This document shows, piece by piece, positions 4,756 through 22,683 of a stretch of 25,991 nt of DNA. The stretch is from a virus (taxonomy: Duplodnaviria > Heunggongvirae > Uroviricota > Caudoviricetes): IMG/VR virus record IMGVR_UViG_2913137851_000001; one strand, 5' to 3'. The notes beneath the pieces were generated by a model that had not been told where the DNA came from, did no database searches, and saw only the letters and a list, made by a program, of their open reading frames with translations. The stretch's first letter is position 1. Each line of letters opens with the position of its first letter. A program made the translations under genes and the position numbers.

Positions 4756-4808
4756 GGGCGGCAGAGCAGTCACGGAGTAAAACTGATACCGCCAAACGTC
4801 ACCAGAAA
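4756..4808 (-). ncRNA. dicF: DicF small regulatory RNA
   Basis: Reverse complement of 4756-4808 reads TTTCTGGTGACGTTTGGCGGTATCAGTTTTACTCCGTGACTGCTCTGCCGCCC, matching recalled 53-nt DicF. It ends in a GC-rich stem followed by TTTTT (the + strand AAAAA at 4751-4755). Sits between ydfC and dicB as in K-12. Confidence 0.85.
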
Positions 4809-5148
4809 ATTGATAACAGAGGGCGTTGCAGCGGGGTTGTCACTTAAGCGTATGGTCAACCTGACAACCCGGTGTCCTCAACGGGGAAGGAATAACCCCG
4901 CCATACTTACCGCCGCGCCATTTCGCGGGTTGCCACAACCGGAAGCGCACGGTCGACGAAAATTTAACGACAGGCTATCTATGAACCAGCTACCTCGCCG
5001 TGCGCTTTCGCGTTATGGTCTGACTTTTCAGGGAAATATCCTTTCAGTAAACTGTCAGTTCCGGATGCGCACCCGTGTCCGGCGCACGCACTCCACCTCA
5101 CCCGTGGAGAACTCCTTAATTACTAACCTTAGCTTTGTTGATTAGCTA

Positions 5149-5367
5149 CTAACGCGGGTATGTAATCATTCTGGCAATGCTTAATGCCGCTGCTTTTTCC
5201 AGATTGGTGATATCCTGCTCCAGAGCGGACAGATTTTCAGCCTGCTTAGCCCTGGCTTCATTAGCCCATTTCAGATCCTGCGCTGCATTAATTTTCTGGC
5301 GCATCCACTCATAAAGTTCATCATCGGTATAGTCTGGCGCGATGATGACGGGTTCTCGTTTCTGCAT
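5149..5367 (-). CDS. ydfC: YdfC, dicB-operon protein
   Basis: 72-aa ORF (MQKREPVIIAPDYTDDELYEWMRQKINAAQDLKWANEAR...), consistent with recalled YdfC and with operon position. Confidence 0.75.
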   Translation of the reverse strand: MQKREPVIIAPDYTDDELYEWMRQKINAAQDLKWANEARAKQAENLSALEQDITNLEKAAALSIARMITYPR

Positions 5368-7020: not shown

Positions 7021-7480
7021 GTGGCTGATTTTTGTTCAGCTAAATATAACATCAGTTTTGAAGAGCGGGATGAACTATTAATGGACTATGGTGAGTTACG
7101 CGGTGGAAGTGCTGCTGATGTCGAATCCTAGCGTGATGACTATGAAGCGGGAAAAACTCCGGTCGAAGCATATTGTGATGAGTGGGGCGATGAATGAGCG
7201 AGATTAATTATCAGGAAGGGCATGAAACGGCGGGGCAAGCAAAACCAGTGGCATGGCGATATCGCTACGTGAAAAAAGGCGTTACGGACTTTCAGGGGAA
7301 GTAGTGGTCTGGTGACTGGAAATATGTACCGAAAAAAGAGGATTGTAACGACAGGCCGAACTATCAAATTCAGGCCTTATTCACTGCCTCACCAGTCCCA
7401 GTTACATCAGAAGAACTGGTTAAAGCTGTGCACTTTTATGAACAACTAAAACGCGAAAATCCACCAACATCCGGCAACTA
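7021..7480 (+). pseudogene. Decayed early-region ORFs (in-frame amber stop and frameshift)
   Basis: Hand translation: GTG 7021 ... in-frame TAG at 7129-7131 ... TGA at 7195-7197 overlapping ATG 7194 (ATGA). A 36-codon ORF runs 7194-7304 (MSEINYQEGHETAGQAKPVAWRYRYVKKGVTDFQGK). Coding-like sequence continues in another frame to about 7480. Confidence 0.4.
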
Positions 7481-7735
7481 GATTAATGGATTAACTATGT
7501 CGGTTAAACGACCAGCCAACTGAAAAAGCGGAAACCTGATTACAGGTTGCCAGATAAGGCAATGAGCTACCTGGCGCGGAACGGACTGATAAGTATGGGG
7601 AATGTTTTACGATGAACCTTTAGACTAAAGAGTTTGTAACGCTATGTAAGTGATTTTTTCTGGTTTAGATATTTATATGTCCGGCCAAATTGAGGTGTGT
7701 TTAAATGTAATTGCACATTGATTGTAGGAGGAATA

Positions 7736-7915
7736 ATGAAAAACGCATTGCAGTTTTTGTTTGTTGCGTTCTGGTTGTTCGCATCATGTATGCCCATCAT
7801 CTTCACAGCAAGGTATATGGAAAAAGTTGATGTTTTGATATTAATATTTGGATATATAAATGCCCTTTTTTTAGGGGTGTTCATGGCGGTCATGTGCATT
7901 GAATACTGGCGGTAA
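7736..7915 (+). CDS. Small (59-aa) predicted two-helix membrane protein
   Basis: AGGAGG at 7726-7731 precedes ATG 7736. Product MKNALQFLFVAFWLFASCMPIIFTARYMEKVDVLILIFGYINALFLGVFMAVMCIEYWR has two hydrophobic stretches. Sits in an AT-rich island (about 7600-7920). Confidence 0.4.
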   Translation: MKNALQFLFVAFWLFASCMPIIFTARYMEKVDVLILIFGYINALFLGVFMAVMCIEYWR

Positions 7916-8042
7916 ATACAGCGAACTCCATTGGTTTAGTTGGATATTTACTGTGCTGGACAAAAACGGTTTGCGGGGAAATCTTAGTTAAGTAGAATGA
8001 CTGCGGGTGCTTGAGGCTATCTGCCTCGGGCATGGACACCAA

Positions 8043-8046
8043 CGGC
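8043..8046. repeat. Target-site duplication (CGGC), left copy
   Basis: CGGC immediately flanks the IS terminus TGACCTGCC at 8047 and is repeated at 9268-9271. Confidence 0.7.
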
Positions 8047-8075
8047 TGACCTGCCCCCACGATTAGATACAACAC

Positions 8076-8909
8076 TCAGTTAGTAACGTCGGAATCTTCA
8101 TTCTCAGAATGACCCTTTCTCCAGCCCGCTGCAAATTCAGACGGTGTCTGATAATTCAGCGTGGAGTGCGGGCGGCATTCGTTATAATCCTGCCGCCAGT
8201 CATTAATAATTTTCCTGGCATGAACGATATCGCTGAACCAGTGCTCATTCAAACATTCATCGCGAAATCGTCCGTTAAAGCTCTCAATAAATCCGTTCTG
8301 CGTTGGCTTGCCCGGCTGGATTAAGCGCAACTCAACACCATGCTCAAAGGCCCATTGATCCAGTGCACGGCAAGTGAACTCCGGCCCCTGGTCAGTTCTT
8401 ATCGTCGCCGGATAGCCTCGAAACAGTGCAATGCTGTCCAGAATACGCGTGACCTGAACGCCTGAAATCCCAAAGGCAACAGTGACCGTCAGGCATTCCT
8501 TTGTGAAATCATCGACGCAGGTAAGACACTTGATCCTGCGACCGGTGGAAAGTGCGTCCATGACGAAATCCATCGACCAGGTCAGATTGGGCGCCGCCGG
8601 ACGGAGCAGCGGCAGACGTTCTGTTGCCAGCCCTTTACGACGTCTTCTGCGTTTTACGCCCAGGCCACTGAGGTGATAAAGCCGGTACACGCGCTTATGA
8701 TTAACATGAAGCCCTTCACGGCGCAGCAACTGCCAAATACGACGGTAGCCAAAACGCCTGCGCTCCAGTGCCAGCTCAGTGATGCGCCCTGATAAATGCG
8801 CATCAGCAGCCGGACGGTGAGCCTCATAGCGGCAGGTCGACAGGGATAAACCTGTAAGCCTGCAGGCACGACGTTGCGACAGACCGGTCGCATCACACAT
8901 CAACATCAC
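8076..8909 (-). CDS. IS3-family transposase OrfB (DDE integrase core)
   Basis: 277-aa ORF with a DDE/rve-like region (D ... D ... E with K/R, e.g. [19 protein letters not shown]). In the -1 frame relative to orfA. Confidence 0.8.
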
Positions 8910-8932
8910 GGCTTCCCGCTTCTGGTCTGTCG

Positions 8933-9196
8933 TCAGTACTTTCGCCCAAGAGCCACCTGAAGCGCCTCTTTATCCAGCATGGCTTCGGCAAGCAGCTTCT
9001 TGAGTCTGGTGTTCTCTTCCTCAAGCGACTTCAGGCGCTTAACTTCAGGCACCTCCATACCGCCATACTTCTTACGCCAGGTGTAAAACGTGGCATCGGA
9101 AATGGCATGCTTGCGGCAGAGTTCACGGGCGGGTACCCCAGCTTCGGCTTCGCGGAGAATACTGATGATCTGTTCGTCGGAAAAACGCTTCTTCAT
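8933..9196 (-). CDS. IS3-family transposase OrfA (HTH)
   Basis: 87 aa, [46 protein letters not shown]..., the typical IS3/IS407-type OrfA with HTH and leucine zipper. Confidence 0.8.
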
Positions 9197-9267
9197 GGGG
9201 ATGTCCTCATGTGGCTTATGAAGACATTACTAACATCGGGGTGTACTAATCAACGGGGAGCAGGTCA

Positions 9268-9271
9268 CGGC
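9268..9271. repeat. Target-site duplication (CGGC), right copy
   Basis: CGGC immediately after the IS terminus ...CAGGTCA at 9261-9267. Confidence 0.7.
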
Positions 9272-9474
9272 AGATAGAGAAAAGCCCCAGTTAACATTAC
9301 GCGTCCTGCAAGACGCTTAACATTAATCTGAGGCCAATTTCATGCTAGACACATGTAGGTTAGCCTCTTACGTGCCGAAAGGCACGGAGAAGCAGGCTAT
9401 TGTTAACACCAAGCTGTAATGTCCCCTTTGAACCATTCTAAAATGTCCCCAGACAATTCTCTGGGGGATTTTTC

Positions 9475-12616: not shown

Positions 12617-12687
12617 ACCAAAGCATGACATCTCTGTTTCGCACCGAAGGTGACACTTCTGCTTTGCGTTGACAGGAGAAGCAGGCT

Positions 12688-12843
12688 ATGAAGCAGCAAA
12701 AGGCGATGTTAATCGCCCTGATCGTCATCTGTTTAACCGTCATAGTGACGGCACTGGTAACGAGGAAAGACCTCTGCGAGGTACGAATCCGAACCGGCCA
12801 GACGGAGGTCGCTGTCTTCACAGCTTACGAACCTGAGGAGTAA
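12688..12843 (+). CDS. hokD: HokD (RelF) Hok-family small membrane toxin
   Basis: Below the ORF-track size cut-off; translated by hand as MKQQKAMLIALIVICLTVIVTALVTRKDLCEVRIRTGQTEVAVFTAYEPEE (51 aa). AGGAGA SD upstream. Confidence 0.85.
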   Translation: MKQQKAMLIALIVICLTVIVTALVTRKDLCEVRIRTGQTEVAVFTAYEPEE

Positions 12844-12911
12844 GAGACCCGGCGGGGGAGAAATCCCTCGCCACCTCTGATGTGGCAGGCATCCTCAACG
12901 CACCCGCACTT

Positions 12912-12933
12912 AACCCGCTTCGGCGGGTTTTTG
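12912..12933 (+). terminator. Rho-independent terminator after relBE-hokD
   Basis: ACCCGC-TTCG-GCGGGT hairpin followed by TTTTTGTTTTT. Confidence 0.7.
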
Positions 12934-13059
12934 TTTTTATTTTCAACGCGTTTGAAGTTCTGGACGGTGCCGGAATAGAATCAAAAATACTTAAGTAGCG
13001 CGCAGGGATAAGAGGGATGGTCCCTTAAAGGGGAGAGCTAATTATCCGGAAGGATTCTG

Positions 13060-16107: not shown

Positions 16108-16407
16108 AAAAATTCCTTAATACTGATAACTTGGCGCACTATACACACGTTCCTGAAGAAAGCTATAGTTTTTTGATGGGGTTGAAGATGGCTGGATGTC
16201 TAAAATAAACATTGCTTCATATGTTCAACTATGCGTTAATGATTGCGTCGGTTTGAAGAACAGACGATATACGAAGTAGTTTACTAAAGCAGTTCTCATT
16301 TCAGGTGTTATTCACTTATTCCTTCTTTGAGTCTCTCCAATTAAGTACGAAGTCGTTTCTGTTATGCAAACCATTTATGCCGAAAGGCTCAAGTTAAGGA
16401 ATGTAGA

Positions 16408-16623
16408 ATGTCAAATAAAATGACTGGTTTAGTAAAATGGTTTAACGCTGATAAAGGTTTCGGCTTTATTTCTCCTGTTGATGGTAGTAAAGATGTGTTT
16501 GTGCATTTTTCTGCGATTCAGAATGATAATTATCGAACCTTATTTGAAGGTCAAAAGGTTACCTTCTCTATAGAGAGTGGTGCTAAAGGTCCTGCAGCAG
16601 CAAATGTCATCATTACTGATTAA
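16408..16623 (+). CDS. cspB: Cold-shock protein CspB
   Basis: 71-aa product [71 protein letters not shown], the CspA family with RNP1/RNP2 motifs. Confidence 0.9.
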
Positions 16624-16903
16624 AATTCATCGCTCGTCTGTATACGATAACGAAGAAGGCTGATGCCTGAGTAGAGATACGGACAGAGTAGTGAATATTG
16701 GATCTCTTTAATAAAAAGTAAGGAGGTCCAATACATGAAACAATGGCTAGCATATTTGGCAAAATCTTAATCAGGAAAAGTATGCTAACCATTGTGGTGA
16801 AGTGCAGGTTTGCTGCATGAATAGTTTTACAGCAGAAGCTAACTGCTGGCATGGCAAAACAAAGTGCGTAAGTGGATGACTCCCACAAAAAGCACCACAA
16901 TCT

Positions 16904-18932: not shown

Positions 18933-19182
18933 GGTAATATTAAATCGGAACATTTACATCGCGGAATGTAAAATTTAAATAAAAAGGACTCTTCCATGAG
19001 CCAAAATTCCTGAAATCTTAAGGGTAAGATAAAAGGTCTTAATCAGAATGACACGTTTTATTAATAAATAAAGCTATTCTTTCATTGCTGTGTTTTTCTT
19101 TACAAAAGTAATCCTTGCTATGGGTGGTTAATCATGCGTTAATGGTGTTCTGGTTTGTTACAAATTTATCTGAAGCAGTCAT

Positions 19183-19191
19183 TGTTATAAT
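19183..19191 (+). promoter_or_regulatory. Extended -10 promoter element upstream of cspI
   Basis: TGtTATAAT about 100 nt upstream of the cspI ATG. The -35 is weak. Transcription start was not determined. Confidence 0.4.
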
Positions 19192-19294
19192 TTTATTATT
19201 TGTACCTCTTGAGATTTCCTTGTTGGTTTTTCTCTCTGATATTTTTTTTCGGACCATTCTGCCCAAGGGCTAATTTCTTCAAAAGGTAATAATT

Positions 19295-19507
19295 ATGTCT
19301 AACAAAATGACTGGTTTAGTGAAATGGTTTAACCCTGAAAAAGGTTTTGGTTTCATCACGCCGAAAGATGGCAGCAAAGATGTGTTTGTCCATTTCTCAG
19401 CAATTCAGAGCAACGATTTCAAAACATTAACTGAGAATCAGGAAGTTGAATTTGGTATTGAGAACGGACCTAAAGGTCCTGCCGCTGTTCATGTAGTGGC
19501 GCTTTGA
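19295..19507 (+). CDS. cspI: Cold-shock protein CspI
   Basis: 70-aa product [82 protein letters not shown] as in cspA-type leaders. Confidence 0.9.
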
Positions 19508-19710
19508 GGTAGACAATATTACAAACCATATTCACTTTAGATGCCCGTGTTGTCATGGTTCCCAGTATAGAACATCATCTTTTGATGTTTCTGACATGAA
19601 TCCTTTCGGGGCAAAATGTATCTTTTGTAAATCAATGATGATTACATTTGATAATATTTCACAATACTTAAATGCCAGCCGTCTGTCGTTGGATTTAAAA
19701 AAGTGAAAAT

Positions 19711-22108: not shown

Positions 22109-22683
22109 TGGCATTCAGAATGAGTGAACAACCACGGACCATAAAAATTTATAATCTGCTGGCCGGAACTAATGAATTTATTGGTGAAGGTGATGCATAT
22201 ATTCCGCCTCATACAGGTCTGCCAGCAAACAGTACCGATATTGCACCGCCAGATATTCCGGCTGGCTTCGTGGCTGTTTTCAACAGTGATGAGTCATCGT
22301 GGCATCTCGTTGAAGATCATCGGGGTAAAACGGTTTATGACGTGGCTTCCGGCGACGCGTTATTTATTTCTGAACTCGGTCCGTTACCGGAAAATGTTAC
22401 CTGGTTATCGCCGGAAGGGGAGTTTCAGAAGTGGAACGGCACAGCCTGGGTGAAGGATACGGAAGCAGAAAAACTGTTCCGGATCCGGGAGGCGGAAGAA
22501 ACAAAAAACAACCTGATGCAGGTAGCCAGTGAGCATATTGCGCCGCTTCAGGATGCTGCAGATCTGGAAATTGCAACGGAGGAAGAAATCTCGTTGCTGG
22601 AAGCATGGAAAAAGTATCGGGTATTGCTGAACCGTGTTGATACGTCAACTGCACAGGATATTGAATGGCCAGCACTGCCGTAG
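22108..22683 (+). CDS. tfaQ: Tail-fibre assembly chaperone
   Basis: 191-aa ORF starting at the stop of the tail-fibre gene (ATAATGG overlap); typical Tfa N-terminus ([17 protein letters not shown]...). Confidence 0.8.

Follow-up and report, generated by a model that had tools for sequence, protein, structure and literature searches.

A probable small membrane protein gene beside the hok/sok cassette in Qin-like prophages of Escherichia coli

The IMG/VR virus record IMGVR_UViG_2913137851_000001 (Caudoviricetes; 25,991 nt, the whole of which is referred to as the window) comes from E. coli C, where it makes up the cryptic lambdoid prophage Qin, located beside rspAB. On its plus strand, next to a hok/sok cassette, lies a 59-codon open reading frame (ORF; 7736–7915) whose product is predicted to be a very hydrophobic membrane protein. 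The described systems closest to this locus are the Hok/Gef type I toxins, the toxin GhoT, the superinfection-exclusion proteins of phages, the class II holins, and the single-gene modules known as morons.

Like the toxin of hok/sok, the 59-aa product is a small and very hydrophobic peptide whose gene lies in the accessory region of a prophage; its location in the inner membrane is a prediction. Hok/Gef proteins have one helix and the 59-aa protein two, and there is no sequence similarity between them; a Mok-like overlapping frame, a Sok-like antisense RNA, and a folded regulatory leader were not detected for the 59-codon gene. GhoT, the toxin of the type V system GhoT/GhoS of E. coli, is a membrane protein of 57 aa with two helices. 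The size, the extreme hydrophobicity, and the predicted two-helix hairpin are shared, but a BLASTP comparison with GhoT gave no similarity, and the 59-codon gene lies in a prophage without a GhoS-like neighbor.

T4 Imm, HK97 gp15, and lambdoid SieB are small phage membrane proteins that exclude superinfecting phages. They resemble the 59-aa protein in being small, phage- or prophage-encoded, predicted inner-membrane products of add-on genes, but they are not homologous to it, and the 59-aa protein is shorter. Class II holins and pinholins (e.g., S21 68) are like it in having two transmembrane helices, with small residues arranged in a stripe that would favor oligomerization. In contrast to the holin genes, the 59-codon gene is not in a lysis cassette and has no endolysin nearby, its neighbors being a frameshifted pseudogene and a hok leader with an insertion sequence (IS). 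Its product also has no charged C-terminal tail (it ends in CIEYWR) and no dual-start motif, its fold matches to holins were non-significant (E of at least 3), and no Pfam or PHROG holin was matched. Morons, a concept of Hendrix and colleagues, are single-gene add-on modules of deviant base composition in lambdoid phages. The locus agrees with this description in being a single-gene module of about 360 bp with 35% GC and mosaic boundaries on both sides, placed between conserved phage functions; morons are usually defined by a promoter and a terminator of their own, and scans of low power detected neither here.

Coding evidence for the 59-codon frame

The plus-strand ORF at 7736–7915 is very probably a genuine protein-coding gene. 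It starts with an ATG at 7736, preceded by the consensus Shine–Dalgarno (SD) sequence AGGAGG (7726–7731) and the spacer AATA, and ends with a TAA at 7913–7915; its product of 59 aa is MKNALQFLFVAFWLFASCMPIIFTARYMEKVDVLILIFGYINALFLGVFMAVMCIEYWR. The features of the gene are as follows.

7726–7731, plus strand: SD sequence AGGAGG, 4 nt 5′ of the ATG (from the sequence; polymorphic among copies)
7736–7915, plus strand: gene for a predicted small two-helix membrane protein, 59 codons, stop codon included (ORF list, copy survey, second clade, coding signature, codon-position composition, hydropathy, and AlphaFold2)
7748–7807, plus strand: predicted transmembrane helix 1, residues 5–24 approximately
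7832–7900, plus strand: predicted transmembrane helix 2, residues 33–55 approximately
7642–7899, minus strand: antisense 85-aa shadow ORF, not a gene (no SD, stop variants, closed in clade 2)

An earlier note, made from the letters of the window alone, had pointed to an AT-rich island encoding a two-helix peptide behind a perfect SD, located in the accessory part of a prophage and adjacent to an IS cluster. Each element of this description was confirmed. The SD, start, and frame are as given above, and the translation contains both hydrophobic stretches that the note had quoted. The GC content of 7600–7920 is 0.349 compared with the window mean of 0.45, which corresponds to the 6.7th percentile of 321-nt windows; the segment is AT-rich but less so than the most extreme one (0.29). 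The locus is in the accessory part of the lambdoid prophage Qin, and an IS3-family element (8047–9267), followed by an ISNCY transposase gene, makes up the adjacent IS cluster.

We regard the coding signature between two divergent clades as the decisive evidence for the gene. HMMER, run exhaustively over 1.84 billion representative proteins, retrieved, in addition to the clade of the window (clade 1), a second clade (clade 2) with the pattern MRKIL[MV]YLCISIWIVISCVPIILTSEYLTEAS.MALMFGHANALCIGVFISIIYIECWR, which also has 59 residues and aligns without gaps at 41% identity. The codon-aligned clades are 59% identical at the DNA level, and their differences are distributed over codon positions 1, 2, and 3 as 25, 17, and 31. 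The resulting pN and pS were 0.34 and 0.72, giving a dN/dS of approximately 0.2 with dS saturated. The BLOSUM62 score of the translated two-clade alignment was 153 in frame. The two remaining forward frames scored 10 and 56, and the three reverse ones 28, 55, and −7. In 20,000 random redistributions of the nucleotide changes, the observed BLOSUM62 score was never attained, the observed amino acid identity was attained in just 1.3%, and an open frame was retained in just 1.8%. The coding signature and the permutations thus show purifying selection on the ORF as a protein.

So as not to favor intact copies, clade 1 was sampled from IMG/VR contigs using an exact 28-nt anchor upstream of the ORF, which gave 118 usable copies. 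The earlier note had set lack of conservation in related prophages as grounds for giving up the ORF; the 59-codon frame was intact in 116 of the 118 copies, and the 41%-identical clade keeps both frame and length. An IS insertion or a frameshift disrupts a few copies. As the members of a clade are 95–100% identical to one another, their intactness says little about selection. Within the SD, the central A (7729) varies among the sampled copies, with AGGAGG in 62 and AGGGGG in 54 of 118, so translation strength may differ between alleles.

Composition and signals were in line with a coding role to different degrees. An ATG-initiated ORF of at least 59 codons occurred in 5.8% of shuffles of 7600–7960 (P = 0.058), and length alone is therefore not significant. 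The chance of a consensus SD at the correct spacing was approximately 0.001 per start. T was found at codon positions 1, 2, and 3 in 22, 31, and 14 of the 59 codons (chi-square P = 0.005), reaching 53% at position 2, and the grand average of hydropathy (GRAVY) of the peptide was above that of shuffles of the same bases (P = 0.02).

Two other gene models were rejected. GenBank submitters and other gene callers have predicted the gene either with 59 aa or as a 72-aa form started from GTG or TTG; the upstream extension of the latter has no SD, and the clade 2 counterpart of this extension uses a different frame and runs into a stop. The antisense 85-aa ORF was rejected as a gene because it has no SD and shares third codon positions with the real gene. 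It gains a stop at 7709 in 43 and at 7662 in 9 of 116 copies (about 45% of clade 1 copies), and its frame is closed in clade 2. Stops occur in all reverse frames when the two clades are aligned, with similarity scores of 55 or less versus 153.

Predicted protein, family, and distribution

The product is predicted to be a very hydrophobic helical hairpin of 59 residues. Its GRAVY is 1.27, and the Kyte–Doolittle 19-residue means peak at 2.1 and 2.4 in the two segments where the earlier note had placed its helices; two hydropathy peaks are present in both clades. AlphaFold2, run with a shallow family alignment, placed helices at 2–26 and 28–58 with a mean pLDDT of 74. From the basic N-terminus (MK or MRK) and the neutral-to-acidic 8-residue loop, the positive-inside rule predicts that both ends are cytoplasmic and the loop is periplasmic.

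Residues invariant between the clades were M1, L5, L8, W13, S17, C18, P20, I21, I22, T24, Y27, L36, F38, G39, N42, A43, L44, F49, I55, E56, W58, and R59. They form conserved blocks in helix 1 (S17-C18-x-P20-I21-I22-x-T24), in helix 2 (F38-G39-x-x-N42-A43-L44), and at the C-terminus (I-E-x-W-R). Helix 2 also carries a stripe of small residues at a 4-residue spacing, in which G39 and A43 are invariant, G47 is present in all but one of the aligned sequences, and position 51 is A or S. Such a stripe is typical of tight helix–helix packing or of oligomerizing transmembrane helices. From the conserved residues and the stripe, the hairpin is expected to associate with itself or to bind a partner.

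The homology search that the earlier note had proposed found no relatives of known function, and on sequence comparison the protein matches no described family. Pfam, PHROGs, and NCBIfam contain no family for it, PADLOC matched neither clade, and the family alignment had no sequence match in the PDB. Member-by-member scanning against Pfam gave only a sub-threshold match to DUF4212 (E = 0.03), and a Foldseek search of viral structures with the AlphaFold2 model returned only generic helical hairpins (E of at least 0.9). No literature on this protein was found.

The sequence searches indicate a family restricted to Escherichia and Shigella and composed of two clades. A scan of one genome per species gave matches only in E. 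coli and Shigella, and searching with a profile of both clades did not reveal a third one. Among 5426 complete E. coli genomes, a 291-nt segment of clade 1 was present at 95–100% identity in 1567, and clade 2 was present in 1045. Neither clade occurs in the Qin or Rac prophage of K-12 MG1655; the K-12 Qin is deleted from ydfX to ydfW, and the region of interest is gone.

Clade 2 occupies a different site, a prophage remnant of about 2.3 kb between ttcA and uspF in the Rac attachment region (e.g., 5001–5180 of our locus L209, E. coli CP042246.1). There, the gene lies beside an integrase fragment of 102 aa and pieces of an ABC-3 permease, and it is the sole called gene of the remnant without a pseudogene signature. 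No hok remnant was found beside clade 2. On the minus strand 3′ of the clade 2 ORF (L209, 5240–5296), a hairpin formed by GACCTCCA and TGGAGGTC is followed by a T-run, which looks like an intrinsic terminator for opposing transcription.

The gene is poorly represented in annotations. In RefSeq, the match was free of annotated features in all 40 clade 1 rows sampled across the ranking and in all 30 clade 2 rows listed, and GenBank deposits name the product "hypothetical protein" or "membrane protein". The three phage records that carry the module (PhiR42_1, vB_EcoS-640R1, and vB_EcoS-813R8) annotate an ORF on the opposite strand, which is called "hornerin" in two of them. The records with this wrong-strand call are PV340562.1 (L003, 5907–6158), ON470612.1 (L004, 5907–6158), and ON470619.1.

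Prophage module and expression signals

The gene is located in the early-right ("nin") region of Qin-like lambdoid prophages, co-oriented with the genes from dicC through ydfU and Q. The segment 7450–8075 is 100% identical to the chromosomes of E. coli C strains WG5, C122, and NCTC122. Genes in the window are ordered as int, xis, exonuclease, ydfD, dicB, ydfC/B/A, dicA, dicC, a truncated ydaT-like gene, a frameshifted pseudogene, and the IS3-family element, followed by the ISNCY transposase gene, ydfW, flxA, ydfV, relBE, hokD, rem, ydfU, and the Q-like ydfT. The parts of the module and its downstream neighbors are as follows.

7600–7735, plus strand: upstream part of the single-gene module, rich in AT (polymorphisms mapped over 116 copies, and DNA alignment of clades 1 and 2)
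7916–7958, plus strand: 3′ flank of the module, alignable between clades (terminator scan negative)
7959–8046, plus strand: neighbor outside the gene, 5′ end of the hok/sok cassette with a promoter-like site and the start of the hok leader (Rfam, colinearity with phage 640R1, and annotation of 933W)
8047–9267, minus strand: neighboring 1221-bp IS3-family (ISSen4-like) element (ends TGACCTG...CAGGTCA, CGGC duplication)

Mosaic boundaries were found on both sides of the gene. In 116 copies, several divergent alleles occur to the left of approximately 7600, and the sequence is conserved from 7600 to approximately 7958; the divergent alleles of 7450–7600 mark a recombination boundary among the prophages. 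To the right, homology to the hok/sok cassette of Stx phages begins at approximately 7959, and those phages are without the ORF. The gene thus sits in a single-gene module of about 360 bp, comprising approximately 135 nt upstream, the gene, and approximately 45 nt downstream, with a GC content of 35% compared with about 45–50% around it. The upstream neighbor (7194–7615) is a frameshifted remnant of phrog_660, to which no function is assigned, and is a pseudogene in RefSeq.

Homology between the clades also covers approximately 45 nt 3′ of the stop and a block at approximately 7601–7655, located 75–135 nt upstream of the start. The block is approximately 78% identical between the clades, which is higher than the ORF itself (59%). 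It contains a 13-nt palindrome, CTTTAGACTAAAG (7618–7630), which is CTTCAGTCTGAAG in clade 2 with one compensatory change; its outer base varies within clade 1. This palindrome might be a protein-binding site or might occur by chance in AT-rich DNA. Consensus or covarying RNA structure was not found in the conserved block.

Every clade 1 copy with enough downstream sequence runs into the hok leader. The hok gene is located at a fixed distance of approximately 250–300 nt in 83 of the 118 copies, and 27 of the 118 have the Qin-type arrangement with other DNA between the hok leader and the hok coding part. At the 5′ end of hok/sok, a promoter-like TTTGCG-17-TAGAAT is present at 7970–7998, and Rfam gave a weak truncated sok match at 7959–8046. 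In L008, a diverged copy of the module, the sok model scored 48.3 bits at the corresponding position, below the gathering score of 59 bits, and was accompanied by an intact hok ORF. The cassette of 933W is annotated with sokW, mokW, and hokW, and the window is colinear with phage 640R1.

The IS3-family element cuts the hok leader at 8046/8047, and the leader resumes at 9268–9400. The IS cluster therefore broke the hok cassette and not the 59-codon gene, and the insertion appears to be specific to the E. coli C lineage. The matching hok coding part is hokD (12674–12938), separated from position 9400 onward by ISNCY, ydfW, flxA, ydfV, and relBE. The "missing" upstream regulatory part of the Qin hokD is thus still present approximately 4.7 kb away. 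The idea of an IS hot spot, in which hok had been inactivated repeatedly by IS and the ORF spared, was withdrawn because the 27 split copies share one Qin-type rearrangement.

The SD was the only expression signal detected for the gene itself. By consensus scanning of 7300–8100, sigma-70-like promoters were found on neither strand, and the plus strand gave no terminator. A weight-matrix scan, in which the hok promoter used as a control was only borderline, found nothing above the shuffle background upstream of or antisense to the ORF in either clade; in this low-power scan, the best minus-strand scores in clade 1 were below the shuffle median. The leader (7600–7780) folded at −35.8 kcal/mol (z = −0.39) and was no more structured than shuffles, and the 3′ flank gave z = +0.25. 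Rfam showed no antitoxin RNA over the ORF, the only match near it being the truncated sok/hok leader downstream. Elsewhere in the window, Rfam matches above the gathering score were the DicF small RNA (4756–4807), an IS1222-type frameshift element inside the IS3 element (8849–8966), cspA-type thermoregulator leaders (16247–16639 and 19149–19534), and an IS009 RNA (22451–22649).

Possible function and consequences for annotation

Our overall explanation, in which we have moderate confidence, is that the gene is real and conserved, that it encodes a small membrane protein of the helical-hairpin type, and that it forms an add-on module by hok/sok. Its mechanistic part, expression by read-through of the early operon and action as a self-associating or partner-binding, membrane-active accessory factor, is tentative. 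As no promoter, terminator, or antisense promoter of its own was found, the gene is most likely transcribed by read-through of the early-right operon. Derepression of the prophage would allow this read-through, and the consensus SD would then provide efficient translation. The hairpin would be inserted in the inner membrane, associating with itself or binding a membrane partner, and may perturb or modulate the membrane during phage development. Over-expression would be toxic under this mechanism, and the protein would be a membrane-active accessory factor rather than a classical antisense-controlled toxin.

Several observations weigh against this explanation. The substitutions within clade 1 were all nonsynonymous and conservative, with five recurrent ones (A16V, V31I, I37M, Y40H, and M53T) and four singletons; nine nonsynonymous versus zero synonymous changes are compatible with relaxed or diversifying selection, although the ratio has P = 0.13 under neutrality and is uninformative alone. 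A decayed copy (L008, 2990–3180; E. coli ECMA0423, CP178302.1) has three 1-nt deletions and one 3-nt insertion. The borderline result for the hok promoter control means that the promoter scans had low power, so the gene may have its own promoter. The small-residue stripe and the topology were read from the sequence and are predictions only. K-12 MG1655 is without the locus, and ribosome-profiling or small-protein data from K-12 are therefore uninformative here. Neither the full-text papers searched nor the supplementary files of the Sakai small-gene paper (PMC5597208) contained the peptide strings. In the diverged module of L008, the SD is GGAG, and the ORF is a pseudogene next to an intact downstream hok ORF.

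The main rival, unlikely in our judgment, is that the gene encodes a superinfection-exclusion or defense factor expressed in the lysogen, whose inner-membrane hairpin blocks the entry of incoming phage DNA or an inner-membrane receptor. Such a protein would act like T4 Imm, HK97 gp15, or DicB of the same prophage acting on ManYZ. A small prophage-encoded protein with a predicted inner-membrane location, carried as a single-gene AT-rich module as morons are, would suit this role. The ORF is intact in highly decayed prophages, being one of the few intact genes in the rearranged replication/"nin" region of the E. coli C Qin and, in 1045 genomes, the sole called gene without a pseudogene signature in the ttcA–uspF remnant of approximately 2.3 kb; the block conserved between the clades upstream of the ORF could be regulatory. 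However, no promoter-like site was found upstream in either clade, PADLOC and PHROG gave no match, and there is no homology to known exclusion proteins. Intactness is also weak evidence of selection at a within-clade identity of 95–100%.

It is improbable that the ORF is translated but dispensable, as a lineage-restricted orphan or "proto-gene" hitch-hiking with the hok cassette. Its presence in only Escherichia and Shigella, with two clades among 1.8 billion representative proteins, is consistent with such an origin, as are the exclusively nonsynonymous changes within the clade, the one decayed copy, and the few copies disrupted by IS or frameshift. The purifying selection between clades on specific residues and on length, at 59% nucleotide identity, is hard to square with a dispensable ORF.

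The earlier note had remarked that small hydrophobic peptides in prophage accessory islands are often toxins or exclusion factors. As for the former, we consider it quite improbable that the gene is a classical type I toxin held by a so far unrecognized cis-encoded antisense RNA, like the neighboring hok/sok. The small hydrophobic ORF (59 aa, GRAVY of 1.27, and two hydropathy peaks), the surrounding island rich in toxin–antitoxin loci (the hok leader at 7959, relBE, and hokD), and a strong SD that would need control are all compatible with a toxin. Type I toxins, however, usually have one helix rather than two, and no homology to their families was found. The antisense promoter that the earlier note had proposed to look for was not found above the null, although these scans had low power, and Rfam placed no antitoxin RNA over the ORF. 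Sequestering of the SD is not evident in a leader no more structured than shuffles, and half of the copies have a weakened SD with no other linked change. The earlier interpretation as a whole is partly supported, namely for the gene, its product, and its setting.

It is also quite improbable that the protein represents a new Escherichia-restricted class of small inner-membrane effectors acting with hok, as a potentiator, an immunity factor, or a second killer within a two-gene cassette, or that it has been domesticated by the host, a reading suggested by the ttcA–uspF remnant of about a fifth of complete E. coli genomes, where no other called gene escapes being an evident fragment. Finally, it is extremely improbable that the segment is non-coding, serving as an AT-rich spacer or as a regulatory region before hok, or that the real gene is the minus-strand 85-aa ORF: RefSeq annotates nothing here, phage records annotate the minus-strand ORF, and T-rich DNA tends to give hydrophobic ORFs (P = 0.06 for length alone), but these readings were rejected on the stop variants and on a conservation signature exclusive to the plus frame, the minus-strand ORF has no SD and is closed in clade 2, and the hok cassette occurs without the module in Stx phages such as 933W.

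The gene is otherwise an ordinary kind of prophage accessory gene, and the immediate value of the finding is mainly the correction of annotations. No class of proteins is overlooked more often in genome annotation and proteomics than the small hydrophobic ones. The annotation gap may affect as many as about half of complete E. coli genomes (1567 and 1045 of 5426, with possible overlap between the two sets), and an entry in protein-family resources would correct thousands of annotations. If the protein were a partner of hok or had been domesticated, a functional gene carried by as many as about half of E. coli genomes would lack annotation in all RefSeq records sampled. The candidate joins a short list of prophage membrane peptides (Hok, DicB, YdfD, and exclusion proteins) able to alter host membrane physiology or phage susceptibility, and its constant pairing with hok/sok raises a concrete and testable question.

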